Assembly (NCBI GenBank): GCA_046753605.1
Contig: JBHHTZ010000021.1
Span: 1 to 17,314, forward strand
Source of the DNA: Anaerolineae bacterium
GTDB taxonomy: Bacteria; Chloroflexota; Anaerolineae; Epilineales; JAANWY01
Length of the DNA stretch: 17,314 bases
Reading direction: 5' to 3'
Below the pieces are notes generated by a model, which saw only the letters and a list, made by a program, of their open reading frames with translations, was not told the origin of the DNA and did not search any database. The position numbers were made by a program, and so were the translations under genes. This document shows positions 1 through 17,314 of the stretch, one piece after another (positions within the stretch are counted from its first letter, which is position 1; every line of letters begins with the position of its first letter).

Positions 1-1
1 C

Positions 2-391
2 CTCAGCCGGCGGCAGGAGGACTCGACCGAGATCGACGCCGGCCCGTCGGGCGTAGTCGGGATTGAAGGTGCGTTCCAGGCGACGTCCTGAGCCTGTCGA
101 AGGGTCGATAACAGCCACGATGTCGCCGGCCGCCGTTGCCTGGGCGACCGCTTTCAGGATGACGGTGGTCTTGCCCGAGGTGTAAGCGCCGATGCACTCG
201 GTGATCCGGCCCCGAGGCAGTCCGCCGATGCCCAGCGCCTGATCCAGGTTCGGGAAGCCGGTGGAGATGTGGGGGAAGTCCCGCTTGTCGGTGGCCGGCT
301 TTTTGGTTCGCCGCAGTGCGCGGGGACCGTATCGGTGCTGAAGCGATGCCGCCAACGCATCCAGCTTGCGTTTCTTGCTCTTCTTGCCCAC
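2..391 (-). CDS. RecA-fold ATPase, ImuA/RecA-like paralogue (N-terminal 130 codons; runs off left window edge)
   Basis: Absent from the supplied ORF track because it has no stop inside the window. Open frame from GTG at 391..389 (in-frame TGA two codons upstream) to the edge: VGKKSKKRKLDALAASLQHRYGPRALRR..HISTGFPNLDQALGIGGLPRGRITECIGAYTSGKTTVILKAVAQATAAGDIVAVID..NPDYARRAGVDLGRVLL. This follows the RecA N-terminal layout: LDxALGxGGxPRGRIxE, a GxxxSGKTT Walker A, then FID...DPxYAxxLGVD. It is diverged (ECIGAYTSGKTT rather than EIYGPESSGKTT). An SOS box lies in its promoter. Confidence 0.75.
   Translation of the reverse strand, partial: MGKKSKKRKLDALAASLQHRYGPRALRRTKKPATDKRDFPHISTGFPNLDQALGIGGLPRGRITECIGAYTSGKTTVILKAVAQATAAGDIVAVIDPSTGSGRRLERTFNPDYARRAGVDLGRVLLPPAE
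76..104 (-). repeat. Short-form copy of the dispersed palindromic repeat family, in-frame inside the RecA-like CDS
   Basis: Plus strand is ccaggcgacgtcctgag + cctgtcgaaggg. The 17-mer ccaggcgacgtcctgag is identical to 15275-15291. cctgtcgaaggg differs by 1 nt from 15316-15327. It is translated as (D)PSTGSGRRLE, between the RecA-like 'VAVID' strand and 'NPDYA'. Confidence 0.6.
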
Positions 392-4301: not shown

Positions 4302-4311
4302 CCCTTCTGAC

Positions 4312-4536
4312 TTACCTCCTCTCTACTTCGGCCACGATGGCTGCGATCCGCCGGCTAGCCTCCTCGCCCAGTGGGGGTGGCTGGTGCTGCTCCAGGATCC
4401 GTGCGACTGTCTCACCGGCCCGCTCCCGGAGGGACATTGCACCATTCATCGAGCCCTGGCAAATGCGATCAATCTCGTTCTCGGTCAAGGGCCGCAGGTA
4501 ATGACCCTTGAGTCCGACGCGGTCTAGGCCAGCCAT
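4312..4536 (-). CDS. Small hypothetical protein (74 aa) embedded between the permease and ATPase genes
   Basis: The ATG at 4536..4534 is 2 nt after the OppC-like TGA (4541..4539). Its stop is 10 nt before the OppD-like GTG. Sequence: MAGLDRVGLKGHYLRPLTENEIDRICQGSMNGAMSLRERAGETVARILEQHQPPPLGEEASRRIAAIVAEVERR. The longer 111-aa track ORF begins inside the permease gene and its N-terminal part looks non-coding. No family is securely recognised. Confidence 0.4.
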   Translation of the reverse strand: MAGLDRVGLKGHYLRPLTENEIDRICQGSMNGAMSLRERAGETVARILEQHQPPPLGEEASRRIAAIVAEVERR

Positions 4537-4538
4537 AC

Positions 4539-5525
4539 TCACTCGATCCTCAACCTTGGATCCAGGACATCCCGCAACCCCTCCCCAAACACATTGATGG
4601 AGAGCACCAGCAGTAGGATCGCGATGCCGGGGAAGGTGGAGACCCACCAGGCGACCAGCAAATAGTCGCGACCAGCCGCCACCATGGAGCCCCAGGCCGG
4701 CGTGGGTGGCTGGATACCCAGGCCCAAAAAGCTGAGACTCGCTTCCATGATGATCATGTGCCCCATGCGCAATGTGCCCAGCACCAACACGGACTGGATG
4801 ATGTTCGGTAAAATCTCCTGGGCAATAATGGCGGCGTTGCTCTGGCCAGTGACCTTGGCCGCCTCCACGTATTCCTGCGTCTTCTCCGACAGCATCTCAC
4901 CGCGCACCAGCCGGAAGAACTCCACCCAGCCCTTGAACGTCAGCGCCAAGATCAGGTTCGTGAAGCCGGGTCCCAGGAAGGCCATGACCCCGATAGCGAA
5001 GATGAGGTACGGGAAGGCCAGCAACAAGTCCGCAAACCGTGACACCAGACTGTCGAGCCGGCCACGATAGTAGCCGGTGATGGCGCCCAGGAACGTTCCA
5101 ATGACAACGGAGATGCCTACCGACAGAAGCCCGACGGCCAGCGAGATGCGGGCACCGAATACGATGCGCGTCAGGAGATCGCGGCCCTGCGCGTCCGTGC
5201 CCAACGGATACGACCAACTCCCCTCCAGATGCCAGGCCGGTGGATCCAGGCGCAGCCGCAGATTCCCCAGCGAGGGGTCGTGCACTGTGATCTGCTTGGC
5301 AAAGATAGCTGCTAACACATAGACCAGGACGACGATACCCCCCAGCATCGCCAGGCGATAGCTGCGCAGTTCGTCAAGGAAGCCGGCCAGGCCCTGGCGC
5401 CACAGCCTCAGGCGAACACGCCACAGATAGGCTTGCCGGGCTACCGGCGTGTCAACTTGCGGAGCAACGTCCAGTAGAAGACCTCCTGTTACACAGTACG
5501 CAATACGCTTCACGATATGCCACAC
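4539..5525 (-). CDS. ABC transporter permease (OppC/DppC-like)
   Basis: Multi-span membrane protein with a BPD-transporter core (SRFADLLLAFPYLIFAIGVMAFLGPGF.., EYVEAAKVTGQS.., LPNIIQSVLV). The start is uncertain. The GTG at 5525 has no SD. A strong AGGAGG (5487..5482) sits 7 nt before an in-frame CTG (5474..5472). No ATG, GTG or TTG occurs in frame until Met59. Confidence 0.85.
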   Translation of the reverse strand: MWHIVKRIAYCVTGGLLLDVAPQVDTPVARQAYLWRVRLRLWRQGLAGFLDELRSYRLAMLGGIVVLVYVLAAIFAKQITVHDPSLGNLRLRLDPPAWHLEGSWSYPLGTDAQGRDLLTRIVFGARISLAVGLLSVGISVVIGTFLGAITGYYRGRLDSLVSRFADLLLAFPYLIFAIGVMAFLGPGFTNLILALTFKGWVEFFRLVRGEMLSEKTQEYVEAAKVTGQSNAAIIAQEILPNIIQSVLVLGTLRMGHMIIMEASLSFLGLGIQPPTPAWGSMVAAGRDYLLVAWWVSTFPGIAILLLVLSINVFGEGLRDVLDPRLRIE

Positions 5526-5553
5526 ACTTAACTTCGCATCGCGTATTGCGCAC
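5497..5553. promoter_or_regulatory. Inverted pair of the GTATTGCGT motif (13-nt arms, 1 mismatch, 31-nt spacer) at the oppB/oppC-like junction
   Basis: gtacgcaatacgc at 5497-5509 and gcgtattgcgcac at 5541-5553. The 9-mer GTATTGCGT (reverse complement at 5498-5506) recurs exactly at 12805-12813 and 14947-14955. Confidence 0.45.
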
Positions 5554-5562
5554 TCCGTGTTC

Positions 5563-6573
5563 TCACAACAAAATCTTCGGGTTCAAATACGTATACAATA
5601 CGTCAACAATCAAGTTAGCCATAACGAAGGTGAAGGCGTAAACCATCACAGTTCCCTGCACCAGCGGGAAGTCCCGCTCGAAGATGGCCTTCACGACCAG
5701 CCGGCCCAACCCTGGCCACCCGAACACCGTTTCGACGATCATGTTACCGCCCAGGAGCACGCCGACCTGCAAACCGACCACGGTGACAGTGGGAATCAGC
5801 GCGTTGCGTAGTGCATGCTTAAAAACGACGTGCCACTCAGGCGCGCCTTTGGCCCTGGCCAGCGTCACGTAGTCCGAGCGCAGTGTCTCCAGCATGCTGG
5901 ACCGCAGCACCCGTGCTACGACAGCCGCTACCGGCGCGCCCAGGGTTATGGATGGCAGCGCAAGGTGTTTCAAGCTGGCAGCCAGGGCGGCACGGTTCCC
6001 CGCGATCAAGCTGTCCAAGACATACAGGCCCGTGACCTCTTCCAACTGCACGCCGTAGCCGATTCGGCCTTGAACAGGCAGCCAATGCAGGCGCACAGCG
6101 AAGATCAGGATCAGCATGATGCCGAGCCAGAATCCAGGCATCGAAATGCCGAGGAAAGCCCCGGCCATACTGAACCGATCCAGCGGCGAGTTCTGGCGCA
6201 CAGCGGAGATGATGCCGATGGGAATCGCCACAACCAGACCGAAGATCAGAGCCCCTAACGCGAGCTCAATGGTTGCCGGCAAGCGCTCCGCGATGAGGGT
6301 GCTCACCGGCCGCTTCTGGACATATGAGTAGCCCAGATCGCCGCGCACGACGTCCTCGAGAAACAACCACAGTTGCACGTACAGCGGTTCGTCCAGATGG
6401 AACTCGTGGCGCAACTGCTCCATCTCGCCAGCGGAAACTGCCCCACTCTGCCCCATCATGATGTCTACCGGGTCCCCCGGCGTCAGGCGCATGAAGAAGA
6501 ACACCACAATGGCCACGCCAAACACGATGGGGATGGCGACCAAGATGCGCTCTACAACCTTGACAGCTCTCAC
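5563..6573 (-). CDS. ABC transporter permease (OppB/DppB-like)
   Basis: 336 aa. The N-terminus ..RILVAIPIVFGVAIVVFFFMRLTPGDPVDIMMG is typical of DppB/OppB. It has a BPD-transporter core (DYVTLARAKGAPEW..HALRNALIPTVTVVGLQ). GTG start at 6573 is preceded by GAGGGGAG. Confidence 0.9.
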   Translation of the reverse strand: MRAVKVVERILVAIPIVFGVAIVVFFFMRLTPGDPVDIMMGQSGAVSAGEMEQLRHEFHLDEPLYVQLWLFLEDVVRGDLGYSYVQKRPVSTLIAERLPATIELALGALIFGLVVAIPIGIISAVRQNSPLDRFSMAGAFLGISMPGFWLGIMLILIFAVRLHWLPVQGRIGYGVQLEEVTGLYVLDSLIAGNRAALAASLKHLALPSITLGAPVAAVVARVLRSSMLETLRSDYVTLARAKGAPEWHVVFKHALRNALIPTVTVVGLQVGVLLGGNMIVETVFGWPGLGRLVVKAIFERDFPLVQGTVMVYAFTFVMANLIVDVLYTYLNPKILL

Positions 6574-6623
6574 AGGTTACACTCCCCTCACCACAACTCC
6601 CTCAACTAAGGGCGTGTCAAGAA

Positions 6624-6744
6624 CTCGACTTTGGCCATTTTGAGGAGTGAGCACGCCTACGTGCGAATGGCTCACAAGATACGGCACGTGGGCGTGCCTT
6701 ACTCCTCAATATATTGTGGTATTAGCAGAATGGCCAAAGTCGAG
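6624..6744. repeat. 121-nt nested palindromic element (MITE/REP-like or structured RNA)
   Basis: The outer stem is a perfect 16-bp stem: ctcgactttggccatt at 6624-6639 against aatggccaaagtcgag at 6729-6744. The inner stem is imperfect and about 24 bp: ttgaggagtgagcacgcctacgtg at 6640-6663 against cacgtgggcgtgccttactcctcaa at 6685-6709. Confidence 0.7.
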
Positions 6745-6836
6745 AAGAAAAAACTTCCCGCTTTCTCGCCGTCAGTCGAGCCAGACATGCGTGACTCCTG
6801 GCAGAATACGACCTGGCAGCGAGTTCGCCTGAGCAT

Positions 6837-6890
6837 CCCTTCGACAAGCCGCCGTGGTGAGCCTGTCGAACCATCAGGACGCCGCCTGAG
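6837..6890 (+). repeat. Dispersed palindromic repeat, copy A (intergenic)
   Basis: The 42-nt core cccttcgacaagccgccgtggtgagcctgtcgaaccatcagg (6837-6878) is identical to 10968-11009 and to the reverse complement of 16769-16810. The internal arms ttcgacaag / cctgtcgaa can pair. Confidence 0.9.
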
Positions 6891-6915
6891 CGGCTGCGAA
6901 CGGAGTGAAGCAGCA

Positions 6916-6973
6916 TATCGAAGGGTGCGGCCACTCCAGGCCAATGTGTCATTGCGAGCCGCACCCTTCGATA
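6916..6973. repeat. Perfect 16-bp inverted repeat with 26-nt loop
   Basis: tatcgaagggtgcggc at 6916-6931 against gccgcacccttcgata at 6958-6973. The loop contains gtcattgcgag. Confidence 0.8.
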
Positions 6974-7034
6974 CGGCCTTCAGCCTACCCAGGATGCTTG
7001 CCCTATTCTCCGATTCGGCCCTATACCCGCCTCG

Positions 7035-8756
7035 CTACGGAGTCAGGCATACATCATGCAGGTTGATGCGGCTGTCCGAAGCCGGCTCCCAGTTCTGGAC
7101 ACGGATCGATGCAGCCTCGGCTTCCTCTGGCAGCACCAGGAACACCGCCGGCGTCTCTTCATAGACGATCTCCTGAGCTTCGTCGTAGATCTCGTGGCGC
7201 TTCGCCGGATCTGCTGTGGTCTCGCCTTCCTTGATGAGCTCGTTTACTCGCTCGTTGCTGTAGGTCGAGAAGTTTCCGCGACCGTAGGGCGTCCCTTCCA
7301 CGCGGCCGTGCCACTTGGCCTCGAAGTGGCCGACTGGATCAAAGGCCGAGTCGCCCCAGTTGTCCAGGTAGGCCATCCGCTCCCCGGCGAGCAGTTTCGG
7401 CTTCACCACACTGTACTCCCAGATGCGGACGCCGGCATCGATGCCCAGAGCCCGGAATTGGCCGGCCACCGCCTCTGTCAGAGTACGATGCAGCTCGATC
7501 GTATCGATCGTGAAGGCGAACGGCTGACCATCCTTGTCCAGGATACCATCGCCGTCCGAATCAGTCCAGCCGGCTTCCTCAAGCAGAGCCAGTGCTTTGT
7601 CTGGATCGTATGGGTACGGCTTCAGATCTTTATTGACGAAGTTGTTGAACGGCGACAGTGGCCCCGGGAGCGCCACCGCGCGCCCACCGTAGAGTTCATC
7701 AATGATGAGCTGTTTATCCACAGCGTAGTTCAGCGCCTGGCGAGCCCGTACGTCGTCGAAAGGCGGCCGGTTGACGTTCATCTCCATCCACCTGGGCTGG
7801 GTGCTCGGCGCTGTCTTCACCTGAATCCCGGGTGTCTGGGCCAGGGTATCAACCAGCTCCGGCGGCACCGCCTGGATGATGTCCACCTCGCCGGCTAGCA
7901 ACGCCGCGACGCGGGTCGACGCTTCGGGGATCACGCGGAAGACCGCACGCTCCGCACAGGCCGGTCCCACCGGCTCCAGGTCAGGTGACCCGCCGTAGTA
8001 GTCATCGAAGCGCTCCAGCACCACCTCTTCCAGACCCGACTTGGCAGAGACGAACTTGAACGGCCCGGTGCCTACGGGCTTCTCGATGAAACCTTTCGTA
8101 CCCACTTCCTCCAGGTAGTGCTTGGGCACGATCTGCTGATGCACGATGAGCTGCATGGCCGGCGGCCAGGGGCCGCTGAAATGCATCACTACGCTGTAGT
8201 CGCCCGTCTTCTCAACGGCCTCCAGGGGCGCGATGAGGCCCTTGCGCGGGGAGGTATGGGCCTCCGGGTACTCGATAGCGTTCTCCCGGATGATGCGGTT
8301 GAACGTGAACACCACGTCGTCAGCTGTCATCTCCGTGCCGTCGTGGAACCTGACACCCCTGCGGAGCTTGACCTCCAACGTCTGGTCGTCCAACCAGTTC
8401 ATCTCCTCCGCCAATTGCAGGTGGACGCCGCTGCGAGTGTCACGGGTGACCAGGCCGTCGAGCATGTTGCGGATCACCGTCTCCGATTGCCGGCTACGAT
8501 GATCAGCCGGGTCCAGCGACGTTGGAGCGGAAGCCAGGCCCACAACAATCGTCTGACGCCCCGGAACAGGAGTGGGCGTGACGACCTTCTCGACCTGCTC
8601 TTTCTCCTTAACCACCACCGTCTCTTTGACCACGACGGTTTCCTTAACAGTCTTCTCCTCGACGCGAACCTCTGGCGTCGGCTGCGCACAGGCACCGACC
8701 ACCAGGCCCAAGAGCAAAAAAACGGCCAGGATGATCAGGTTCTTTCGGTTGAACAT
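7035..8756 (-). CDS. ABC transporter substrate-binding lipoprotein, family 5 (peptide/opine/nickel type)
   Basis: 573 aa. Signal peptide plus lipobox (LLLGLVVGAC, Cys23). A repetitive linker VKETVVVKETVVVKEKEQVEKVV is coded at about 8580-8648. The mature domain has family-5 SBP character (TIVVGLASAPTSLDP.., FKFVS.., RPPFDDVRARQALNYAVDK.., WGDSAFDP). SD AAGGAGGAGG precedes the ATG. Confidence 0.85.
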   Translation of the reverse strand: MFNRKNLIILAVFLLLGLVVGACAQPTPEVRVEEKTVKETVVVKETVVVKEKEQVEKVVTPTPVPGRQTIVVGLASAPTSLDPADHRSRQSETVIRNMLDGLVTRDTRSGVHLQLAEEMNWLDDQTLEVKLRRGVRFHDGTEMTADDVVFTFNRIIRENAIEYPEAHTSPRKGLIAPLEAVEKTGDYSVVMHFSGPWPPAMQLIVHQQIVPKHYLEEVGTKGFIEKPVGTGPFKFVSAKSGLEEVVLERFDDYYGGSPDLEPVGPACAERAVFRVIPEASTRVAALLAGEVDIIQAVPPELVDTLAQTPGIQVKTAPSTQPRWMEMNVNRPPFDDVRARQALNYAVDKQLIIDELYGGRAVALPGPLSPFNNFVNKDLKPYPYDPDKALALLEEAGWTDSDGDGILDKDGQPFAFTIDTIELHRTLTEAVAGQFRALGIDAGVRIWEYSVVKPKLLAGERMAYLDNWGDSAFDPVGHFEAKWHGRVEGTPYGRGNFSTYSNERVNELIKEGETTADPAKRHEIYDEAQEIVYEETPAVFLVLPEEAEAASIRVQNWEPASDSRINLHDVCLTP

Positions 8757-8954
8757 ATCCTCCTCCTTGCTCGTTGCAATTCATGTGTAGACTGAACCAA
8801 GAGCGATCAGTGAACCGGCTGCAGACAGCGTTTCTTTTAGTTATCACCTCCTTTCTGTGTGGAGAGCGGAGATGCAGGGGTGCTGGGGTGAGAGGGAGAA
8901 CCTTCTCGCTTCCTGCCCCCCCGTGCTCCCTTGCACCCAGGCTCCCTGGCCCAA

Positions 8955-11900
8955 CTAGGCTGGCACCAACGCACGCTCATGTACCGAGACTTCCACATCG
9001 AGCGGCAGGAGCTCACGTTTCATGACCCGCAGCGCCTGCTCCGGATGCACCCGGCCATACAAACCACCCAGGATACCCACCAGGTACTTGGCATCCAGCA
9101 ACATCGGTCCCGTGGGCCGCAGGATGTGCGACTTCTCAGGATCATACAGCACGCCGCTGGCAATCAGTGCCAGATCTTCCTTGAAACCAGGTTCCCAATC
9201 CCGACACTTGTGATAAATCGTGCCGCCGATGAGCAGCACCGTCACGGGCTGGTTGAAGTAGTTCACGCCATACTGCAGGAAATACGTCTCCGTTTCGTCC
9301 ACCCGACCAACGTGCTTGCCCGTTGCCACGGCCATGATCTCCTTTGCCAGGAAGGACCGCGCGGCATTTTCCAACACCGTCTCCGGAACTCGGTGCGGGT
9401 TCTGAGTGAGCCAGCTCAGGTAGTTGTCCAAGTCCACCTGGTAGGTACCGTCGTAGCTGCGGACGAAGCGCCGAAACTGATCGTCGCCTGGACCGAAGTC
9501 GCTGGGGAAGCGGACAGCGAGGTAGCGACTCATTTCGCGCGCCATCGCATCATTCTGGAAGCGCTCCAACTCCTTCAGGTTCTCAGCATTGTAGCTCAGG
9601 CCATACTTGCCTTCCACGCGACGGTACACCAGCGGCACGTTCGGGGTCTTCAGGATTGTGCGCTTCACCCTGCGTCGATGATCCTCACCGGGATAGAGGT
9701 ACAGCGGGTTATCATCCACGTTAGAGTAGAAGTCCGTCGTCGCGCCACCGATGTCGAGGGCCACGATGTTACCCAGACCCTCTTCACCACCGTATCCCTG
9801 CGCCAGCAGGTTGATGCCCCGAAAAGTCGCTCGCGGGGTCGGCATGAACGGTGCATCCATATACTCCTCAACCACGTCGAAGCCCTTGCCTCGGATGATC
9901 ACCGTCTGGAAGAGCTCGCGGATGGCCTCGTTTACCACCTCGATGTGGAACTCGTTGATCTCGGGCATGATGTTGGGCGTCACGCGGATGTCCACATCGT
10001 GGTGGTGGAAGATATTCTCGATCTGCTCACGGATGTCCTGGTTGCCGGCGTAGATCACGGGTACGCCGTACTCGGTGTAGGCGACATACTTGGCCGCCTC
10101 AGCCAGCATGCGGGCGTTGTGGAGCTGTGTCCCGGTGTCGCCGCCCTGATCCGTGCCACCGGCCAAGAGAATGATCTCCGGCTCGTCAACTTCGTAGATG
10201 GCGCGCGCCTGCTCGGGTGTTAGCTTGCCTTCGTAGGTGCCCAAGAGCTTGGCGCCGGCCGTCAGCGCTGCCAACTCGGCCGCGAAGCCCGATTCCTCCT
10301 TCACCAGTGACACGGTCACCATCTTGAGGCCACCCTTCGCGCTGGAGCAAGGCAGACGCACCACGAACTCGCCCATCTTCTCCGCCAACGGCTGCCAGTC
10401 GCCACGCTCTTCACATGCCTCCAATACCCCTAGCCCATTGGCCAAACCGGCGCGGATGTCCTCAACCGTGGTGGGCACGTAGCGCAACTCGAAGATCTCG
10501 TCCTTGGTGTCGAAGATGCCAACCTTCGTATAGGTGCTGCCAAAGTCCACCACCAACACCTTCTCGTCCGCCAGACCGGTCACGCCGATTTGTTTGCGAA
10601 ACCTGGCCACGGTTTCGTCGTCGATCTCTTCGACCTCAGCGTCCTCCACGATAAAGGTGTCGTCATCGGCGCGCGTCACGTCTTTGTAGAAGTACCACGG
10701 ATAGCGCTCACGGACGAGGTCCACGCGTTCGAGCTCACTGCCGACTTTGATGCCGTCCCACTCGTCGATGCGACACATGCCGCCGACGACCTTGGTGCGG
10801 CAGGCGCCGGCCATCTCGTACCGCCGGTCGACGACCGTGATGTGTGGGCCCTGGAACAGGCCAATCTGCAACGCCAGGTCTAGCGTGTCAGCGCTGATCA
10901 GGCCGCAGGCCCCGGTCGGGTAGTTCGCCTCATCGATCAGGCTGAGCAACATGGTCTCGAAGTTCTTCCCTTCGACAAGCCGCCGTGGTGAGCCTGTCGA
11001 ACCATCAGGGCGTCGCCCAGGATCCTCTTCCGGCTCATGAGCCCACTCCCAAAAGTTCTCCGGTGTGACAGGGCCGTCATACCCGCCGAGGATGGCGCCA
11101 TGAAGCAAGTTGTACATGGCACCCTGCTTCAACTCCAGCTTGCGGTCCTTCAACACCGGATCATTCCAGATATCAGGCATGTGCCCTTTGACGAAATCCC
11201 AGCAAACCTGCTTCGTAATCTCGCAGGACTCGATGATGTCGTCGGCGCCAGCCTCGTGGTGGGCCTCGGAGTGGGTGACTACGTGCAAGATGTCGGGCTC
11301 CAGATAGAGCTGGGTGTAGATGCCAAAAGCGAGATGTCCTTTGGCCTCATTCAGATTAGGCGGGAAGCTGGGCAGTCCCGATCGTGTCTGTTTGATGATA
11401 CTGAAATCGAAGTGGCGTGTGAGAGGCTCGGCCAACTCGTAGGCCGCCTTCATCTTCGCCAGATCATCCAGCGCCGAGATTTCGGGCGGCAACTCGAACA
11501 TCATCTGCATCACGTAGTGCTTGACGCTCTTCTTCAGCGCGATGACGGCACAGAGGACATGGTCGGCAACCTGCATGTCGTCGCTGGCATAGCGCAGGCC
11601 CCACTGATGAGGGTCGTTGATCTCCACCGGCTTACCCTGTTCAGTCCACCATTCAATCGTGCGGAAATGTTCATCGAAAGAATCGCGGATGCTGATGGGG
11701 CCGCGCCCGTCCAGTTCGTTGTAGAAGAAGATAGGCACAGCCGGAAAAGCCATATTCAGATGCTCTTCCCACAGCTTGGCCAGCTCGATCAGCTCGTCGG
11801 TGCCAGTGTAGATACGGGTCAGGGGGTAGTTGCCCCGTTGCGAAGCAGCTTTCAGACGCTTCAGGTCTTCTATGGTGCGGATCGGCGCACCACCCTGGCC

Positions 11901-12761
11901 GGCTAGATACCTGTCAGGCTCCTCTTCGCCTCGGATGAACTTGGCGAGAAGCTCTTGCGAGGTCTGATCCGGAGCCAGAGAGACGATTTCGAGAGCGCCG
12001 GCATCGGACAGCTTCTCAATCGCCTTCACCGTGGGTTCGATGCTTTCATCAGCGATGCCGATGTGAGCGCGGATAATCGGACGGTTCTCCCGCTCACGCA
12101 CCTGGCGAATGCGCTCAACCAGGTAATCAGACCATTCAAGCTCCTTCGCCTCGTGGGCTGGCGGCACCCGATGAGCGAAGCGCTCCAGCTCCTCCATCGT
12201 CACGAAATCGTCCACTACGAGTTCGAAGAAGCCCTGGAAGTGCTCCTTGTCTTTGTACTCTTCAGCTACCTCATCCAGGTCAAAGTGCCTCTCGTCCTCG
12301 CGGACGAAGCGGTCCGGTTCCAGCGGTAGGCCGGTCATAGCTCGGACCACGTTGGCTGCCGGCCGCAATCCCCCGAAGGTGTAGCGAATGCCACTTTCCC
12401 GAGGGTGCAACCCGTGTTTGGTCGCCGATTCCACGAACTCAGTGATCAGCTTGTCCACGTGCAGGTCGCCCAGCCGCATGGACACACCGACGACCTCGGG
12501 GCGCGCTTCGCGGATCTTGTTGATGACTTCCTGGATCGGGACGGCTGGCCCCAGCTTAACAGTCACATAGCCCAAGCCCAGATCTTCCATCCACCCGGCA
12601 AAGTTTTCAACACCCAGATTGTGGACACATTTGCCGATGGCTCCTACCATGACCCGCCGCTTCGTGGTGAGCTCCGTCCCGAGCCCGTCGAGGGGCTTGT
12701 CGAACCGCTTGTGATCCGAATCTGGCGGCTTTTCTTCGGCCTTCTCGTTTGATAAATCCAT
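8955..12761 (-). CDS. Large fusion protein: B12-binding (GlmS/MutS-like) domain + GlmE/MutE-like TIM barrel + GlmL/MutL (glutamate mutase L, ASKHA reactivase-like) domain
   Basis: 1268 aa. ATG at 12761 with SD CAGGAGGT at a 9-nt spacing. (1) aa ~36-140: VMVGAIGKCVHNLGVENF..VVGVSMRLG..RYTFGGL has the layout of the cobalamin-binding Rossmann domain (DxHxxG...SxL...GG), with Cys at the Asp position. (2) aa ~205-695: RPIIRAHIGIADESIEPTVKAIEKLSDAGALEIVSLAPDQTSQ ... LTRIYTGTDELIE ... PVEINDPHQWG ... HVVTHSEAHHEAGADDIIES ... GLFQGPHITVVDRRYEMAGACRTKVVGGMCRIDEWDG parallels, as I recall it, clostridial GlmE (ITMAQPRAGV..ADFLPSTIDAYTRQ ... QARHGTPD ... INREPFGPLTG ... IVKTPHEAIGIPT ... [30 protein letters not shown]). 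(3) aa ~733-1268: KVLVVDFGSTYTKVGIFD ... CSSAKGGLKM ... IILLAGGTDQGGDTGTQLHNARMLA ... VIYAGNQ ... MPTPRA ... IVALDIGGATTDFYS closely follows GlmL/MutL (IDFGSTYTKV, ACSSAAGGLKM, ILLAGGTDGGN, VVAGNK, MPTP, VVDIGGATTD). Domain (3) is high confidence, domain (1) good, domain (2) moderate. Confidence 0.8.
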   Translation of the reverse strand: MDLSNEKAEEKPPDSDHKRFDKPLDGLGTELTTKRRVMVGAIGKCVHNLGVENFAGWMEDLGLGYVTVKLGPAVPIQEVINKIREARPEVVGVSMRLGDLHVDKLITEFVESATKHGLHPRESGIRYTFGGLRPAANVVRAMTGLPLEPDRFVREDERHFDLDEVAEEYKDKEHFQGFFELVVDDFVTMEELERFAHRVPPAHEAKELEWSDYLVERIRQVRERENRPIIRAHIGIADESIEPTVKAIEKLSDAGALEIVSLAPDQTSQELLAKFIRGEEEPDRYLAGQGGAPIRTIEDLKRLKAASQRGNYPLTRIYTGTDELIELAKLWEEHLNMAFPAVPIFFYNELDGRGPISIRDSFDEHFRTIEWWTEQGKPVEINDPHQWGLRYASDDMQVADHVLCAVIALKKSVKHYVMQMMFELPPEISALDDLAKMKAAYELAEPLTRHFDFSIIKQTRSGLPSFPPNLNEAKGHLAFGIYTQLYLEPDILHVVTHSEAHHEAGADDIIESCEITKQVCWDFVKGHMPDIWNDPVLKDRKLELKQGAMYNLLHGAILGGYDGPVTPENFWEWAHEPEEDPGRRPDGSTGSPRRLVEGKNFETMLLSLIDEANYPTGACGLISADTLDLALQIGLFQGPHITVVDRRYEMAGACRTKVVGGMCRIDEWDGIKVGSELERVDLVRERYPWYFYKDVTRADDDTFIVEDAEVEEIDDETVARFRKQIGVTGLADEKVLVVDFGSTYTKVGIFDTKDEIFELRYVPTTVEDIRAGLANGLGVLEACEERGDWQPLAEKMGEFVVRLPCSSAKGGLKMVTVSLVKEESGFAAELAALTAGAKLLGTYEGKLTPEQARAIYEVDEPEIILLAGGTDQGGDTGTQLHNARMLAEAAKYVAYTEYGVPVIYAGNQDIREQIENIFHHHDVDIRVTPNIMPEINEFHIEVVNEAIRELFQTVIIRGKGFDVVEEYMDAPFMPTPRATFRGINLLAQGYGGEEGLGNIVALDIGGATTDFYSNVDDNPLYLYPGEDHRRRVKRTILKTPNVPLVYRRVEGKYGLSYNAENLKELERFQNDAMAREMSRYLAVRFPSDFGPGDDQFRRFVRSYDGTYQVDLDNYLSWLTQNPHRVPETVLENAARSFLAKEIMAVATGKHVGRVDETETYFLQYGVNYFNQPVTVLLIGGTIYHKCRDWEPGFKEDLALIASGVLYDPEKSHILRPTGPMLLDAKYLVGILGGLYGRVHPEQALRVMKRELLPLDVEVSVHERALVPA
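10968..11021 (+). repeat. Dispersed palindromic repeat, copy B, lying in-frame inside the mutase-fusion CDS
   Basis: 10968-11009 is 42/42 identical to copy A, and similarity continues to about 11021 with 2-3 mismatches. On the coding (minus) strand these 54 nt are 18 codons, PGRRPDGSTGSPRRLVEG (aa 581-598). Confidence 0.9.
12664..12706 (-). repeat. Diverged repeat-family copy inside the N-terminal extension of the mutase-fusion CDS
   Basis: gtggtgagctccgtcccgagcccgtcgaggggcttgtcgaacc is about 79% identical (34/43 by hand) to 15285-15327. It shares cgtggtgagc and tgtcgaacc with the type-1 core. It is translated as RFDKPLDGLGTELTT (aa 19-33), upstream of the B12-domain start. Confidence 0.55.
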
Positions 12762-12802
12762 TACAAGATACCTCCTGTAGTGAGTAATGCATAGTGCGCG
12801 TT

Positions 12803-12813
12803 GCGTATTGCGT
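12803..12813. promoter_or_regulatory. GTATTGCGT motif copy upstream of the mutase-fusion gene
   Basis: gcGTATTGCGTga, 44-52 nt upstream of the ATG at 12761, within the 76-nt ODH/mutase intergenic region. Confidence 0.4.
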
Positions 12814-12814
12814 G

Positions 12815-12850
12815 ACGCATCAGACGATACTCACGCATCACGACGCATCA
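12815..12850. repeat. Three direct copies of ACGCATCA (TGATGCGT on the coding strand)
   Basis: Copies at 12815-12822, 12833-12840 and 12843-12850. The second overlaps the ODH stop codon. The third lies within the last ODH codons. Confidence 0.5.
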
Positions 12851-14013
12851 TAGACTAAGTCTTTCAGCTCGTAGAAACCATACCGCTGCGGCGCACGTGT
12901 GGCTGCCGCATCGCGGCCCTGCAACTTTCCGTCGACCAGATATTCCTTTTCAAGTTGCTCCTGTGCCCACGTGATGACCTGATCCATGGTTGGCGTTGCC
13001 ACACCGGCCAGCTCCGCGATGCTCCGTGTCACCACCAAGCCATAGGGCACATCTTCGGCCAGATAGCGGGCGTGAAAATCCGGCGCCAATCCGCCCTCGG
13101 CTGGGCGCATGGGGGCACGGAGGCCGGCATAGCTGCGGTTCGTCACAAAACAGCTCTGCAACGTAGTTGGATCAGCGATATCCTTGCCGTACGAGCGTCG
13201 TGCCCACTCATCCAGCGACCGCACAGCAGACAGATTGAGATCCGGGTAGTGGCGCTCCAAGACGGCACGCAACGTCTGGACTTCATCGCTCAGTTGCTGG
13301 AGGATGCCGGCTATGGTGGCGTTGATGCCCTGGTAGAAGGACGGTGCTTTGGCATAGGGCCGGCCATCCCAATCGTGGAACAGACCGTACATTATGCCGG
13401 GGTGAATGAGCTGCCCGGTGTTGGCCAGCGTGAGACCGAGAAGGCTTGCCGCATGTTGCAGGCGAATCCCCAACGGATCACTGAGCAACCCGGAGATTTT
13501 GCCGGCATAGGATGGCGGCAAAGCCGCCAGATCGACTTGCTTCTTGGTACCGAGGATTGTGACTTCCTCCCCATACATGTTGAGCCGGCAGGCCCACGGC
13601 AGCGTCTGCAAACCAAAGACGACGATGGACGCCGTCTTACCCCCCAGAACATCCTCCACACACCAGTCAAATCCGCCGCGAGCCGGCAGCGCTCCCAACC
13701 AAGCCCCGTCGTCGATGTAAGGAGCGATGTCGCGTAGAACGATCTCGTGCGCAAAGGCCGGCAAAGCCAACAACACGAGCCGCGAGCCCGGAATGACCTC
13801 CGCCGGATCGGCACTGATGCGAGCGGGCCGGCCCACGACACGACCACGTGGCATGACAGCGGTTACACCGCCTCGAGCTTCCATGGCCTGACGCCAGCGT
13901 TGAGTCTCGTCGCCGTACGGAGCGTACACGTTCACGGCCCAGTCGCGCCGGCCGGCTAACAAGCTGACCAGAGCGTGAGCTCCGTTCCCACCTCCACAGA
14001 CAGCAACTTGCAT
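12838..14013 (-). CDS. NAD(P)-dependent opine dehydrogenase (octopine/nopaline dehydrogenase family)
   Basis: 391 aa. N-terminal dinucleotide fold MQVAVCGGGNGAHAL. Central/C-terminal LANTGQLIHPGIMYGLFHDWDGRPY and FHARYLAEDVPYGLVV are characteristic of opine dehydrogenases. The ATG is 1 nt after the RpiR stop, with GGAG at -7. Confidence 0.8.
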   Translation of the reverse strand: MQVAVCGGGNGAHALVSLLAGRRDWAVNVYAPYGDETQRWRQAMEARGGVTAVMPRGRVVGRPARISADPAEVIPGSRLVLLALPAFAHEIVLRDIAPYIDDGAWLGALPARGGFDWCVEDVLGGKTASIVVFGLQTLPWACRLNMYGEEVTILGTKKQVDLAALPPSYAGKISGLLSDPLGIRLQHAASLLGLTLANTGQLIHPGIMYGLFHDWDGRPYAKAPSFYQGINATIAGILQQLSDEVQTLRAVLERHYPDLNLSAVRSLDEWARRSYGKDIADPTTLQSCFVTNRSYAGLRAPMRPAEGGLAPDFHARYLAEDVPYGLVVTRSIAELAGVATPTMDQVITWAQEQLEKEYLVDGKLQGRDAAATRAPQRYGFYELKDLVYDAS

Positions 14014-14014
14014 A

Positions 14015-14878
14015 CTACTCCGTGATTAGAAGGTTTCGTTTGCGATACGCCGTGTCGACCCGCCGCAGGGCATCCATGCTCTGCTCCGGCACCCGATACG
14101 AGAGAGCGGCAATGAGCACGTTGATGAGCGCGATGGTCGCCGTCGGTGATAGGCTATGCGTGACTCCATCCGTAGCCACCTCGAAAGCATAGTCCGCTGC
14201 CTGTGCCAGCGGTGAGACGACGCTGTCGGTGATCGCCACGACCGGTGCTCCCTGTTGACGAGCTGCGTACACCGCCTCCACTGTGGAACGTACGTAGCGC
14301 CACAGATCGATAGCAATCAGGAGCGTATCCACACCGAGTTGTGCTGTGTCCACAGCCAAGGAAAGCCCACCGTCCAGGGCTGCCCGCGCATCGAAGCCAA
14401 TGACCTTCAGTGAGTGGGCCAAGAACAGCGCCGGCACTGTGGAGAGCCCCGAACCAACGACAAGGATATGGTCCGCACGCACGATCTCTTCCAGGACAGC
14501 ATCAAGCTGCTGCGCAGACAGTCTGCTGGCTGTGCGTTGAAGATTGGTGATGTCGGTGTGAAAGACCTGTTGGGGAATGTCATCTGCGGCCGGAGGTGTG
14601 GTCAACCGCTCTTGCATGCGCTCGACGGTAGTCAGATAACTGGGGAGTTCCTCACGGATCGTAGCCTGGAGTTCAGAGAAACCCTCGTACCCCAAGCCCT
14701 GAGCAAAGCGAACCACGGTGGCAGCGCTGGCATCGACCTTGTCCCCCACCTCGCCGGCTGACGCAAAGGACACGAAGTACTTGTTTTCCAGAACGAAGCG
14801 CGCCAGCCGTCTCTGCTTACCACTGAATCCATCGAGGGATGCCCTGATCCGTTCTTCTAAGGTGTCTGTCGAACCCAT
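14015..14878 (-). CDS. MurR/RpiR-family transcriptional regulator (HTH_6 + SIS domain)
   Basis: 287 aa. N-terminal HTH: RRLARFVLENKYFVSFASAGEVGDKVDASAATVVRFAQGLGYEGFSELQ. SIS sugar-isomerase-type domain: ILVVGSGLSTVPALFLAHSL .. LLIAIDLWRYVRSTVEAV .. GAPVVAITDS. SD CAGGAGGA precedes the ATG. Confidence 0.9.
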   Translation of the reverse strand: MGSTDTLEERIRASLDGFSGKQRRLARFVLENKYFVSFASAGEVGDKVDASAATVVRFAQGLGYEGFSELQATIREELPSYLTTVERMQERLTTPPAADDIPQQVFHTDITNLQRTASRLSAQQLDAVLEEIVRADHILVVGSGLSTVPALFLAHSLKVIGFDARAALDGGLSLAVDTAQLGVDTLLIAIDLWRYVRSTVEAVYAARQQGAPVVAITDSVVSPLAQAADYAFEVATDGVTHSLSPTATIALINVLIAALSYRVPEQSMDALRRVDTAYRKRNLLITE

Positions 14879-14914
14879 AGCAGTCCTCCTGAAGGCAATT
14901 CGTTGGCCGGGCCT

Positions 14915-14943
14915 ATTATATCACAGGCCGCCGAGAATTGCAA
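14915..14943 (-). promoter_or_regulatory. Sigma-70-type promoter of the rpiR-led operon: -35 TTGCAA (14943..14938), 17-nt spacer, -10 TATAAT (14920..14915)
   Basis: The minus strand reads TTGCAAttctcggcggcctgtgaTATAAT. The -10 is about 37 nt upstream of the rpiR-like ATG (14878). Confidence 0.65.
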
Positions 14944-14946
14944 CTA

Positions 14947-14955
14947 GTATTGCGT
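14947..14955. promoter_or_regulatory. GTATTGCGT motif copy abutting the -35 of the rpiR promoter
   Basis: Exact 9-mer, 3 nt upstream of the -35 hexamer on the coding strand (ACGCAATACtagTTGCAA). Confidence 0.4.
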
Positions 14956-15150
14956 TAGGTCAGATAGATGGAACAATCGTTGCACAAAAGAAGCGTGGCT
15001 GTAGGATTTCGCACGCGCAAGAAGGATGTCTCGTTCGAAGAGGAGCGACGCAAAGCGAAGGCGTGGTCAAAGAGCACAAGGCCGAGAGCTCCGTCATCGA
15101 CCGAGAGCAGGTGGTGGGGGTAGATCGAGACAGCCTACAGCGGGACGCCG

Positions 15151-15190
15151 CCCTTCGTCAACCCTTCGGACCGAGGGGCTCATCAGGACG
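15151..15190 (+). repeat. Degenerate copy of the repeat family (intergenic)
   Basis: cccttcgtcaacccttcggaccgaggggctcatcaggacg shares both termini with the type-1 core (cccttcgNcaa ... catcaggacg). The interior is diverged and shorter. Confidence 0.4.
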
Positions 15191-15194
15191 GGGC

Positions 15195-15395
15195 TTAAGT
15201 CGTTCGCCGGCGCAGGACCTGGAGCTGGTGGGCGCGCTGGACGTATTGCTGCATGACGTCGTCGATCTCGTGGCCCAGGCGACGTCCTGAGGTCCCTCCC
15301 GAGCATGACGAGGGGCTTGTCGAAGGGTTGGCCAGACGCTTGTCCCACCGGGCGCGAGGGATGTCTTCGGCGAACAGGGAGAGTTGTTGGGTCAT
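15195..15395 (-). CDS. Small hypothetical ORF (66 aa) downstream of fic, largely built around a repeat copy
   Basis: ATG at 15395 with SD GAGGAGAA, 25 nt after the Fic stop. MTQQLSLFAEDIPRARWDKRLA-NPSTSPSSCSGGTSGRRLG-HEIDDVMQQYVQRAHQLQVLRRRTT. The central third is translation of the repeat at 15275-15327. It may be a remnant rather than a functional gene. Confidence 0.3.
   Translation of the reverse strand: MTQQLSLFAEDIPRARWDKRLANPSTSPSSCSGGTSGRRLGHEIDDVMQQYVQRAHQLQVLRRRTT
15275..15327 (-). repeat. Type-2 (long variant) copy of the repeat family
   Basis: Minus strand: cccttcgacaag-cccctcgtcatgctcgggaggga-cctcaggacgtcgcctgg. The ends are shared with the short copy at 76-104, and the interior is shared with 12664-12706. 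Confidence 0.7.
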
Positions 15396-15420
15396 TGGGC
15401 TTTCTCCTCGGCTTTGCCCC

Positions 15421-16359
15421 TCACGACAGTTTGCCAACCGAACGCAGGTACGCCTCCACTGCCCGCCGGGTGGTGACCCAGTTGCGCCCCCGTTTGATGG
15501 CCTCCAGCCGGCCCTTGCGCGCCAGCAGGCTGAGGTATTCCTGGCTATAGGGCGTACCTTTGGCCGCTTCTGCAAGCGGAATGTACTCGCCCTCAGCCGC
15601 CGGCGGCCCCTCCTGGGGAGTCAATGCCTCCAGGTAGACGGTCAGCGCATGTTCCACGGCCCGTCCCACGAAGTTGATCAGGGGAGCCAGGTTTCCAGCG
15701 TCGGCCTTAGCCAGCGCGCTGTAGTAGCTGCGGCGGTCCACCTTGCGGATGACTGTCGGAGGGTAGCCGTCCTGCATGAGGAGCAGGTTCATGACCAGGC
15801 GCGCCGTGCGGCCGTTGCCGTCGATGAAGGGGTGAATGTAGACCAACCGATGATGCGCTTCGGATGCGCGCTGCACCGGATGCAGCAACCGGGCATCGGT
15901 GGCCAACCATTCCGCGAACCCTTGCATGAGATGGGGCACATCCCAGGGCTCGGGGGGCCGATGATTCGCACCTCCGATGCGCACAGGCAATTTGCGGTAC
16001 TGGCCGGCCTCTGCATCGTCTATCTTAGCCAGCACCAGGGCATGGATCTGACGGACGGTGTGCGCAGTGATGGGTTCCCCTTTCCGGGCCAGGTCTTCGA
16101 CAAAGTCGATAGCCTCTTTGTGGTTGAGCACCTCGAAGTGTTCGCGCAGGGACTTGCCGGCGATGGTCAGACCAGTCTCCAGCACCAACCGAGTTTCCTT
16201 GAGGGTCAGCGTATTGCCCTCGATGGCGTTGGAATTGTAGATCCACTCCAGGGTGATGCGCTCCCAGAGCCGGGTGAGAGCGGCTCTGGGCAAGGGACGC
16301 AGAGCGTCCAGTTGTGCCTTTTTGGTTTCGATGCGCGCCTTCAGGCGTGGGTCAAGCAC
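15421..16359 (-). CDS. Fic-family protein (AMPylase-type) with N-terminal inhibitory helix and C-terminal helix-turn-helix
   Basis: 312 aa. Fic motif HPFIDGNGRTAR (15834..15799). N-terminal (S/T)xxxE(G/N) inhibitory motif SNAIEGN (class II arrangement). The C-terminus IPLAEAAKGTPYSQEYLSLLARKGRLEAIKRGRNWVTTRRAVEAYL looks like an excisionase/MerR-type HTH. GTG start. Confidence 0.9.
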   Translation of the reverse strand: MLDPRLKARIETKKAQLDALRPLPRAALTRLWERITLEWIYNSNAIEGNTLTLKETRLVLETGLTIAGKSLREHFEVLNHKEAIDFVEDLARKGEPITAHTVRQIHALVLAKIDDAEAGQYRKLPVRIGGANHRPPEPWDVPHLMQGFAEWLATDARLLHPVQRASEAHHRLVYIHPFIDGNGRTARLVMNLLLMQDGYPPTVIRKVDRRSYYSALAKADAGNLAPLINFVGRAVEHALTVYLEALTPQEGPPAAEGEYIPLAEAAKGTPYSQEYLSLLARKGRLEAIKRGRNWVTTRRAVEAYLRSVGKLS

Positions 16360-16375
16360 AGGAAGCCCCCTGTCA

Positions 16376-16423
16376 GTATCGGATAGCTGTCGATATTATA
16401 CATCCGATACCGACAAGAAGCAA
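16376..16423 (-). promoter_or_regulatory. Candidate fic promoter (-35 TTGCTT 16423..16418, 17-nt spacer, -10 TATAAT 16400..16395) bracketed by a 9-bp inverted repeat
   Basis: The minus strand reads TTGCTTcttgtcggtatcggatgTATAAT. The perfect inverted repeat gtatcggat (16376-16384) / atccgatac (16402-16410) flanks the -10, an operator-like geometry. Confidence 0.5.
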
Positions 16424-16590
16424 GCAGCGGCCGACGAAAGAAGGCGATGGGCGTGGCTCGGTCGCAGAGCAAGGGCTGTGCCGCCGGCCAGGTAGAACGG
16501 GCGCAAAAGAGACACCTGCCCCAAGGTAGTCAGCAAATCTCGCGCTTCCACCGTTACAGCCCCCCAATGCGGCGTGGTCAATGGGGCCAT
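16396..16590 (-). pseudogene. N-terminal remnant of an AbiEii/AbiGii-type nucleotidyltransferase toxin gene
   Basis: 64-aa ORF: MAPLTTPHWGAVTVEARDLLTTLGQVSLLRPFYLAGGTALALRPSHAHRLLS... This matches the N-terminal signature of that family (..L..L.....L..F.LvGGTALAL..GHR.S.DlDfF). It degenerates after GGTALAL and stops after 64 codons, where full-length members are 250-300 aa. Its 3' end is overlapped by the fic promoter. Confidence 0.4.
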
Positions 16591-16758
16591 ATCCGCTCTC
16601 CATGACGATAGTCAGTGATCCCAAAGAAGCACAGCCAATACTTGAGCCGTTGCCTGGGCAGGCAGCGCCAGCCGGCCCGGCGCACCCATTCGGCCAGCCG
16701 ATTTGCCCCACGAAGCGCGGCGCCCACCCTGGGGCCTCCTCCGCTCCCCCGACGTCGA

Positions 16759-17034
16759 TCACGCTCGTCCTGATGGTTCGACAGGCTCACCACGGCGGCT
16801 TGTCGAAGGGATGGCTCCACGTCTCTCTGCCTGGTATCCCCGCCAGGAGGCCGCAGCCGCCAACTCCCAGTTGGCCAGGATGAACTCGGTGTGACTCTCG
16901 ACGCTCTCGCGCCCGGAGGGGAGGTTCTGCTTCTTGAACTTGCGGTCGTGGGCGCGGACAAACGAACCCCGCCATCTCCGCCGGCGTCGGCGTTTCTTGT
17001 TAGTCATCGTCCGCTGCCATGCCTGCGCCGGCAC
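16759..17034 (-). CDS. Hypothetical very basic small protein; C-terminus replaced by repeat copy C (possibly disrupted gene)
   Basis: Sequence (MPAQAWQRT)MTNKKRRRRRRWRGSFVRAHDRKFKKQNLPSGRESVESHTEFILANWEL..., ending in the repeat-derived IPSTSRRGEPVEPSGRA*. The alternative ATG at 17007 overlaps the upstream ORF stop (ATGACTAA). No family is recognised. Confidence 0.3.
   Translation of the reverse strand: MPAQAWQRTMTNKKRRRRRRWRGSFVRAHDRKFKKQNLPSGRESVESHTEFILANWELAAAASWRGYQAERRGAIPSTSRRGEPVEPSGRA
16766..16810 (-). repeat. Dispersed palindromic repeat, copy C (inverted orientation)
   Basis: The reverse complement of 16769-16810 is 42/42 identical to copies A and B, and the match to copy A extends to 45 nt. 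It supplies the last 17 codons and the stop context of ORF 16759..17034. Confidence 0.9.
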
Positions 17035-17158
17035 TGGTGTCGGCCAGCTCCACCGCTGCCTCGGCCAGGGCCTTGATCACGTCGTTGATCTCGTGGACGT
17101 AGACCGCGATGCCCTCAGGACATTCCTCGTCGATCTCCGCCGCCCGACTGCGCAGCAC
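17000..17158 (-). CDS. Hypothetical small acidic ORF (start uncertain; frame is open to the window edge)
   Basis: ..PLLVLRSRAAEIDEECPEGIAVYVHEINDVIKALAEAAVELADTSAGAGMAADDD*. The stop TAA at 17002..17000 overlaps the next ORF's ATG. The GTG at 17158 is one candidate start. This may instead be the frameshifted continuation of the ORF ending at 17197. Confidence 0.3.
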   Translation of the reverse strand: MLRSRAAEIDEECPEGIAVYVHEINDVIKALAEAAVELADTSAGAGMAADDD

Positions 17159-17196
17159 CAGAAGGGGCTGCTCACCGACCGGAGCCGGGTAGAGCT

Positions 17197-17313
17197 CTAT
17201 AGCTCGTGATCCCTGGGGCCTACGCTGCCCTGGGCGTCGCCGCGTTTGATGAGGGCATTGAGGGCTCCCAGGAGTTCGATGGTTGTGTGCCCCAGTTGCT
17301 CGTATTGTTTCCG
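17197..17313 (-). CDS. C-terminal 38 codons of an unidentified protein entering from the right edge
   Basis: Absent from the ORF track because its start lies outside the window. ..RKQYEQLGHTTIELLGALNALIKRGDAQGSVGPRDHEL*, with TAG at 17199..17197. The composition is protein-like. No family is recognised. Confidence 0.35.
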   Translation of the reverse strand, partial: RKQYEQLGHTTIELLGALNALIKRGDAQGSVGPRDHEL

Positions 17314-17314
17314 A

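Follow-up and report, generated by a model that had tools for sequence, protein, structure and literature searches.

A nested 48-nt palindromic repeat in frame within a mutase fusion gene of an uncultured Anaerolineales bacterium

The window analysed here is a stretch of 17,314 nt from an uncultured Anaerolineales bacterium (assembly GCA_046753605.1, contig JBHHTZ010000021.1, positions 1 to 17,314 of the forward strand); its longest open reading frame (ORF) codes for a mutase fusion protein that carries, in frame, a short palindromic repeat also found elsewhere in the window (copies A, B and C in Table 1, copy B being the one in the mutase gene). The protein has a B12-binding-like domain (residues 36-134; PF02310, 26.6 bits, below the cut-off), a TIM-barrel domain (about residues 229-700) and a GlmL/MutL domain (residues 735-1251; Pfam PF13941, E = 5e-91, with a match to the NCBIfam GlmL family). 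The middle 500 residues have no Pfam match even at E <= 10 and no PDB sequence match at E <= 1, and the catalytic domain has no sequence match to Met_asp_mut_E (Pfam) or to solved GlmE (PDB). An AlphaFold2 model of residues 1-740 (mean pLDDT 72.5) contains a (beta-alpha)8 barrel at about 229-493, and the best Foldseek matches are to glutamate mutase subunit E (6h9e_B and 1cb7_B; E = 5e-13, TM-score 0.65 on the target, 14% identity), ahead of ornithine and lysine aminomutases. An earlier note on this DNA had called the catalytic domain GlmE-like, a description that holds for the predicted fold only.

The same note had placed in this domain a 54-nt in-frame repeat shared with two non-coding copies. 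The repeat is real and in frame: positions 10968-11021 are exactly codons 581-598 (peptide PGRRPDGSTGSPRRLVEG), the 54-mer had no match in 200 shuffles, positions 10967-11009 are identical to 6836-6878 (43/43), positions 10967-11012 are complementary to 16766-16811 at 45 of 46 positions, and 6834-6881 and 16766-16813 are complementary throughout (48/48). The inserted unit, however, is of 48 nt and 16 residues and not of 54 nt and 18 residues. We aligned the 120 best homologues, which have 72-98% identity and carry for the most part the labels Anaerolineae or Anaerolineales, with Caldilinea besides; 119 of them (72-86% identity) show a clean gap at the site, and the gap is one of 16 residues; since the orthologue consensus reads ..EPEEDPEK^NFETMLL.. 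(the caret marks the insertion point here and below), P581 and G582 are most likely ancestral. In the DNA of the closest insert-free orthologue (P0002, 86% identity; loci L005-L007) the empty site is GAGCGG^AACTTCGAG, and the net gain relative to the orthologues is the 48 nt of 10968-11015 (residues 583-598). When the boundaries are set by the conservation profile of 39 copies (positions 0-47, see below), the ancestral protein reads DPG^KNF and the inserted peptide is RRPDGSTGSPRRLVEG, in a stop-free frame of 16 codons. The 16 residues are an insertion that arose once the lineage had parted from the 86% identical orthologue but before the sampled strains, which differ by 1-1.6% in nucleotide sequence, diverged; the event, which the earlier note had called recent, is recent relative to the first of these splits but older than the second. 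The label non-coding suits copy A, which lies in a spacer, but not copy C, which puts a hypothetical, arginine-rich ORF of 161 aa out of frame and truncates it; in a sister strain this ORF is intact.

Table 1. Repeat copies, their parts and the host gene, in positions of the window (a dot stands for no strand)
Feature	Position	Strand	Description
Host coding sequence, longest ORF of the window	8955..12761	minus	1268 aa; from the ORF and its translation
Copy B, 48-nt element in frame	10968..11015	minus	codons 583-598, peptide RRPDGSTGSPRRLVEG
Copy B, plus-strand sequence	10968..11015	+	CCCTTCGACAAGCCGCCGTGGTGAGCCTGTCGAACCATCAGGGCGTCG
Hairpin of copy B	10971..11001	.	arms TTCGACAAGC (10971-10980) and GCCTGTCGAA (10992-11001); 11-nt loop CGCCGTGGTGA
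Inner 24-nt module of copy B	10981..11004	+	CGCCG-TGG-TGAGCCTGTCGAA-CCA; from the module formula, stem covariation and the solo module 81-104
Outer module of copy B	10968-10980 plus 11005-11015	opposite to inner module	
Nested 48-nt site	10991..10992	.	L001-L004 carry an extra CCCCCTTCGACAAGCTCAGGGCGTCGCTTCGACGAGCTCAGGCGGGGC in the hairpin loop
Second in-frame 48-nt composite, same coding sequence	12660..12707	minus	residues 19-34, RFDKPLDGLGTELTTK
Copy A, 48-nt element	6837..6884	+	in a 461-bp spacer; ABC permease gene (5563-6573), solute-binding protein gene (7035-8756)
Copy C, 47-nt insertion without target-site duplication	16764..16810	minus	empty site of L001 (~6152) GGGGCCAT^CGTGATCGA
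Related 48-nt composite	15280..15327	+	CGACGTCCTGAG + 23-nt filler + GCTTGTCGAAGGG; edge of strain-variable segment
Solo 24-nt module	81..104	minus	CCCTTCGACAGGCTCAGGACGTCG; plain form of the module

The insert is also present in four other assemblies of the same species (JGI 3300038380, 3300023444 and 3300023507, and the NCBI metagenome-assembled genome GCA_964532665.1), which are 98.4-99% identical in nucleotides to positions 181-15327 of the window. In the sister-strain loci L001-L004 a further 48 nt, made of two tandem 24-nt modules (11770-11817 in L001), is nested in the hairpin loop of copy B, and the protein insert there is of 32 residues, still in frame (PGRRPDGSTG[PLRQAQGVASTSSGGA]SPRRLVEG). 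Copy A is found in L001 and L002 as well, and L001 alone has a 24-nt module, CCCTTCGGTGGGCTCAGGACGTCG (15816-15839), at window position 6993, in the spacer of the solute-binding protein and permease genes. Because the strains differ by these nested 48-nt and intergenic 24-nt gains and by the 47-nt gain that is copy C, the element family is active now or was so until recently. A second composite lies within the mutase gene, in the disordered N-terminal tail of the protein; it is 83% identical to 15283-15324 and consists of a 24-nt module, CGGTTCGACAAG^CTCACCACGAAG, split centrally by another 24-nt module. Most orthologues have nothing at this position, and the 86% identical orthologue has the outer 24 nt only (QFDALTTK). 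Therefore, the mutase gene records two insertion series, one from 0 to 24 to 48 nt at the N-terminus and one from 0 to 48 to 96 nt at residue 582. Separately, a segment at about 15400-16698 varies between strains: the window has a Fic/DOC plus helix-turn-helix gene there (15421..16359, minus strand), and L001 a different segment (6217-6578 and 6684-7434) that holds two more modules and a Phage_int_SAM_1 gene. The shared sequence stops on one side exactly at the end of the 15280-15327 repeat; on the other, homology gives out at 16699, about 65 nt before copy C is reached.

The 24-nt module follows the formula CGNCG-XYZ-TGAGCYTGTCGAA-Z'Y'X', in which TGAGCYTGTCGAA is a conserved core of 13 nt and the flanking triplets form a covarying 3-bp stem. 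In the 48-nt element, an inverted inner module is set into the core of an outer one (positions 0-12 and 37-47). Among 159 occurrences of the core in the fetched loci, the closing stem is of at least 3 bp in 81%, against 1.6% expected by chance, and the stem triplets come in 18 forms; conservation of the core thus goes with covariation of the stem. The three nested events are all compatible with insertion at TGA^GCYTGTCGAA. The hairpin of copy B has a stem of 10 bp with one A.C mismatch on the plus strand, which is G.T on the coding strand, and A/G and C/T stem positions vary among the other copies. An array in locus L187 (1020-1158), with six perfect tandem copies of the 24-nt unit TGGTGAGCCTGTCGAACCAACCTG and five of six reading frames open, confirms that 24 nt is the period of the module. 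A tRNA 3' end (GGTTCGA...CCA), a LexA box and an integron attC site were considered for the repeat and dropped, their defining motifs being absent.

We took a census of the pattern TTCGACARGC-N11-GCYTGTCGAA in species-representative genomes and obtained 102 loci, against about 4 expected by chance if composition is taken as uniform. The Anaerolineae-type 48-mer occurs in 39 independent contexts that have unrelated flanks and share a conserved block at positions 0-47; 25 of these copies are in frame within ORFs with Pfam-verified domains in Anaerolineae genome bins, a pattern that resembles the Rickettsia palindromic elements. A copy was called genic if an ORF spans it, so that only in-frame genic insertions can be counted, and three of the 25 are close to N-termini with an uncertain start codon. 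The host proteins include a histidine kinase (with the copy within the HATPase_c match), a GT4 glycosyltransferase, an M20 peptidase, HMG-CoA reductase, LeuB, a NarG-like molybdopterin enzyme, KsgA, a CDC48-type AAA ATPase, CysRS, CdhD and an alpha-2-macroglobulin. Alignment with solved structures leaves a gap of exactly 16 residues for LeuB (3u1h_A) and two gaps, also of exactly 16 residues each, for HMG-CoA reductase (L040; 9v7y_A). In the CDC48-like ATPase (L082) several repeat units make up a block of about 40 residues, and a DUF5107-TPR protein (L025) has two tandem copies. Four of the six reading frames of the element are open, and 21 genic copies use the two hydrophilic ones (PSTSRRGEPVEPSG, RRPDGSTGSPRRLVEG), with 4 in the other two open frames (two-sided binomial p = 0.0009 for 21:4); this skew, which is seen among the in-frame genic insertions that alone are detectable, suggests selection on the encoded peptide. 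As to whether the element is selected to be translation-compatible, a question raised in the earlier note, a count confined to in-frame insertions cannot reveal selection on frame, and the frame-shifting copy C, with 47 nt, shows that the element is not always compatible. Removal of 45-51 nt at the non-genic copies revealed no clearly disrupted long ORFs. Two further searches gave few hits: an exact 31-mer had 4 matches in a metagenome contig collection that evidently lacks the JGI contigs, and a census at the protein level, for which three element-encoded peptides were joined into a 48-aa query, returned a single candidate. A fixed 48-nt block has spread copy-like to unrelated sites, nesting takes place at a fixed point of the module and gains can be seen between strains; most copies of the family lie within protein-coding genes of Anaerolineae, as a rule in one of the two hydrophilic frames.

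How the mutase accommodates the insert can be judged from the AlphaFold2 model and from the divergence of strains. The insert falls within a coil (559-600) between two helices (535-558 and 601-608, both with pLDDT 96-97), in a stretch that follows the TIM barrel of the glutamate mutase E-like domain and is variable and acidic in the orthologues. The mean pLDDT is 55 for residues 581-590 and 63 for 591-600, and residues 589-595 are below 50. A variable, acidic coil of low confidence is consistent with a surface loop, the question of loop or core having been put in the earlier note. Between two insert-bearing strains the mutase gene has 18 synonymous and 8 non-synonymous differences, and since pN/pS is 0.135 the gene has remained under purifying selection from the insertion onwards. 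As the strains with the insert diverged under such selection, it appears to be tolerated by the enzyme.

Three other accounts of the 16 residues can be weighed against these data. Beyond the open reading frame, nothing favours the idea that they are ancestral coding sequence, lost elsewhere, from which the intergenic copies derive; 119 of the 120 homologues, which span many lineages of Anaerolineae and Caldilinea, lack them, the 48-nt block is present in about 25 unrelated protein families and in spacers, and the gap alignment has effectively refuted this account already, so that its probability is vanishingly small. A repeat so short, with three copies within the window, might also have induced a chimeric assembly that put the element inside the gene, but the junctions are identical in four other assemblies, from different samples and pipelines, the frame is kept and the flanks are collinear with the orthologues. 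Five independent assemblies of one species with the same insert, the window's included, dispose of the mis-assembly that the earlier note had asked about, and we give it next to no weight. It is improbable, although somewhat less so, that the insert is an exapted loop under functional selection, providing a new interface or a regulatory segment, and not a tolerated passenger. Its retention in all five assemblies, the purifying selection on the gene and the lack of any substitution within the insert between strains would fit such a loop, yet the same peptide occurs at unrelated positions of unrelated proteins, sister strains double the length of the insert with another repeat, and the model gives the segment low confidence. 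Most probably, a small, non-autonomous, hairpin-forming 48-nt repeat, built of two oppositely oriented and nested 24-nt modules, has inserted into the mutase gene, as an insertion of a mobile or recombining element had been proposed; the gap in the homologues and the empty site in the orthologue's DNA bear this out.

Because we found neither a transposase nor a target-site duplication (none in the flanks of the 39 copies or in the filled and empty pair of copy C), the way of movement is something that we infer. Possibly, the folded element is copied and pasted by an enzyme supplied in trans, which would recognise the folded module as in the single-strand HUH/Y1 systems; the likeness would lie in dependence on a hairpin, in the lack of a target-site duplication and in insertion into the loops of existing modules at TGA^GCYTGTCGAA. 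Selection would then keep those insertions that are in frame, free of stops, hydrophilic and in loops. A serious rival, if one we hold to be rather unlikely, is that the repeat has no transposase of its own and spreads between existing copies by recombination (homologous or microhomology-mediated), by gene conversion or by the switching of templates at hairpins, in which case it should be called recombining and not mobile. The missing transposase and target-site duplication suit this rival, as do the nested insertions in the middle of modules already present, which offer sequence homology, the strain-variable segments that start at module ends and the CGTC-type repetitive extragenic palindromic (REP) sequences, which are likewise reported without a dedicated transposase (PMC3733652). 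What speaks against it are the blocks of 44-48 nt that are identical in unrelated genes and organisms, and the flanks of primary insertions (those in the mutase, in LeuB, in HMG-CoA reductase and in the histidine kinase, among others), which are unrelated and have no homology to the element. The recurrent neighbours in 194 loci were just syntenic phage or gene-transfer-agent-like structural genes and generic families, and were set aside.

Several observations weigh against the reading of copy B as an inserted mobile hairpin repeat that is kept in frame by selection. The hairpin of the 48-mer is no more stable than those of shuffled sequences (z = -1.1 to -1.2 as DNA, -0.5 as RNA), and the 96-nt nested form alone stands out in folding energy (z = -4.7). 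An all-against-all BLASTP of 3573 ORFs from the 194 loci revealed no ORF recurrent beside the element, the primary insertion sites of the 39 copies have no conserved target motif, and the exact subtype is low in copies, with about 2-5 matches per genome bin, below classical REPs. The census demanded a spanning ORF, and the absence of out-of-frame genic insertions is thus not demonstrable. At the mutase site itself, the boundaries are ambiguous by 1-3 nt because of CCC/GGG at both ends, the ancestral state is read from an orthologue of only 86% identity, the exposure of the insert is read solely from the secondary structure and confidence values of the model, and the difference between the window and L001 could be a precise loss and not a gain.

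Palindromic repeats inside genes and in frame have been described before, as Rickettsia palindromic elements (RPEs) and as GTAG and CGTC REPs in several phyla (PMC3733652). RPEs (Ogata et al. 2000 and 2002, as summarised in PMC3733652) are small palindromes that lie in spacers and also, in frame, in ORFs whose proteins are probably still functional. Like RPEs, the present element is palindromic, occurs in spacers and in frame in ORFs of conserved proteins, adds a peptide to many unrelated proteins and has a high fraction of genic copies; with 25 of 39 copies in frame and the 16-residue gaps in LeuB and HMG-CoA reductase, the comparison made in the earlier note is sound. It differs in its host, an Anaerolineales bin of the Chloroflexota, which sets it apart from the RPE families of Rickettsia genomes, and in its nested, Russian-doll build, and RPE-1 is much longer than the present unit (48 nt of 24-nt modules). 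The REP/REPIN sequences, including the GTAG- and CGTC-tagged superfamilies, are a second point of reference, and some of those located in ORFs encode 20-30 extra residues (PMC3733652; PMC3116915). The present element shares with them a short imperfect palindrome, dispersal without target-site duplication and some copies within ORFs, and with CGTC REPs the lack of an identified transposase. However, its stem is of 10 bp with an 11-nt loop, against 8-9 bp and 4-5 nt in REPs, its copies are mostly genic and not extragenic, and each bin holds few of the exact subtype. No GTAG tag is present at either end of the consensus of the 39 copies (YCCTTCGAC... and ...CAGGACRNCG), and no gene recurs beside the copies in the 194 loci, to which the search for an association with a RAYT (Y1 transposase) was confined. 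In CGTC REPs the tag abuts a stem of 8-9 bp that starts with A-T pairs, with a 4-5-nt loop and a CCA tail (PMC3733652); here CGTC is present in copies A and C only, 7 nt off a stem of 10 bp with its 11-nt loop.

The small mobile sequences found inside enterobacterial genes and the miniature inverted-repeat transposable elements, or MITEs, of 100-170 bp, have terminal inverted repeats and usually target-site duplications (PMC2759123; PMC3184786). They resemble the present element in being non-autonomous, in that they can sit inside genes and in contributing peptide sequence, but it has neither their length nor terminal inverted repeats nor a target-site duplication. Even on the broader description of MITEs (terminal inverted repeats and a duplication, about 70-300 bp), the element stands outside, with its 48 nt, no duplication and 39 unrelated flanks. 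The small dispersed repeats (SDRs) SDR4-6 of Nostocaceae, reportedly treated by Elhai and colleagues in Genome Research in 2008, are said to be mobile, of 21-27 nt, polymorphic in close relatives and nested. By this description they are similar in their units of about 24 nt, in the nesting seen at the two mutase sites, in the strain polymorphisms of 24, 47 and 48 nt and in the 24-nt period of the L187 array. They belong to a different lineage, and their sequence is presumably unrelated; prevalent in-frame genic copies and a 13-nt core with a covarying 3-bp stem are not features known from SDRs. SDRs of Nostocaceae are also mentioned in PMC5861425. In the literature we found nothing specific on the encoded peptides or on Anaerolineae repeats and no description of the present element family in Chloroflexota. 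The phenomenon is of a known kind, the element is a distinct variant of it that appears to be widespread in Anaerolineae proteins, and its 24-nt nesting architecture appears to be undescribed. With the corrections given above, the interpretation in the earlier note is essentially correct.

The core and stem TTCGACAAGC...GCTTGTCGAA are multi-copy in bins labelled Microbacteriaceae, Treponema, Bacteroidales, Planctomycetales, Saprospiraceae, Methylotenera and Leucothrix (loci L012-L113 on genome contigs, L114-L205 from IMG/VR). The outer stems of these non-Anaerolineae copies covary, and the loop in Microbacteriaceae is almost the same as that in Anaerolineae; of the matches on viral contigs, about 14 are one homologous set of gene-transfer-agent-like structural clusters and are not independent. 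A wider proposition, to which we give tentative and somewhat less than even credence, is that modules of CGNCG, a covarying 3-bp stem and TGAGCYTGTCGAA, growing by loop insertion at TGA^GC, form an undescribed superfamily, of which the mutase insert is one instance; it would be present in several bacterial phyla and in IMG/VR contigs, and in Anaerolineae its members would lie chiefly within protein-coding genes. If so, insertions in Anaerolineae proteins would be quantised at 8 and 16 residues, a dedicated mobilisation machinery would recognise the conserved core, and conserved enzymes would receive a steady supply of new surface loops.

The neighbourhood of the mutase gene (997-14878) comprises an RpiR-type regulator, an octopine/nopaline dehydrogenase-like gene, the GlmS-GlmE-like-GlmL fusion, a family-5 solute-binding protein, two permeases, two ATPases and an AAT/C45-like gene. 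Judged from these neighbours, above all the opine-dehydrogenase-like gene and a peptide ABC transporter, the mutase, whose catalytic domain has no sequence match to characterised mutases, may act on an opine or on an amino acid, perhaps one derived from peptides. Another long hairpin repeat adjoins copy A (6902-6986; ATCGAAGGGTGCGGC...GCCGCACCCTTCGAT, including TCATTGCGAGC), and the same spacer has a 19-nt inverted repeat (6624-6642 and 6726-6744, 95% complementary, 83 nt apart) just downstream of the start region of the permease gene. A search of the whole window against Rfam gave no family at the gathering thresholds, and a relaxed search of 6780-7010 matched only miRNA models, judged to be chance hairpins.

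Colonisation of proteins by in-frame palindromic repeats is best known in Rickettsia, where it prompted the idea that selfish DNA can give rise to new protein segments. It is now seen in free-living Chloroflexota, where the unit, of 24 or 48 nt (8 or 16 residues), is unusually small and quantised, the hosts include the essential enzymes LeuB, CysRS, KsgA and HMG-CoA reductase, and gains are visible between strains. The family thus offers a tractable system for the tolerance of proteins to random loop insertions, and bears on how minimal elements move without duplication or a visible transposase. It also warns annotators and those who predict structures that a repeat element is the source of peptides like PSTSRRGEPVEPSG and RRPDGSTGSPRRLVEG when these occur in Anaerolineae proteins.

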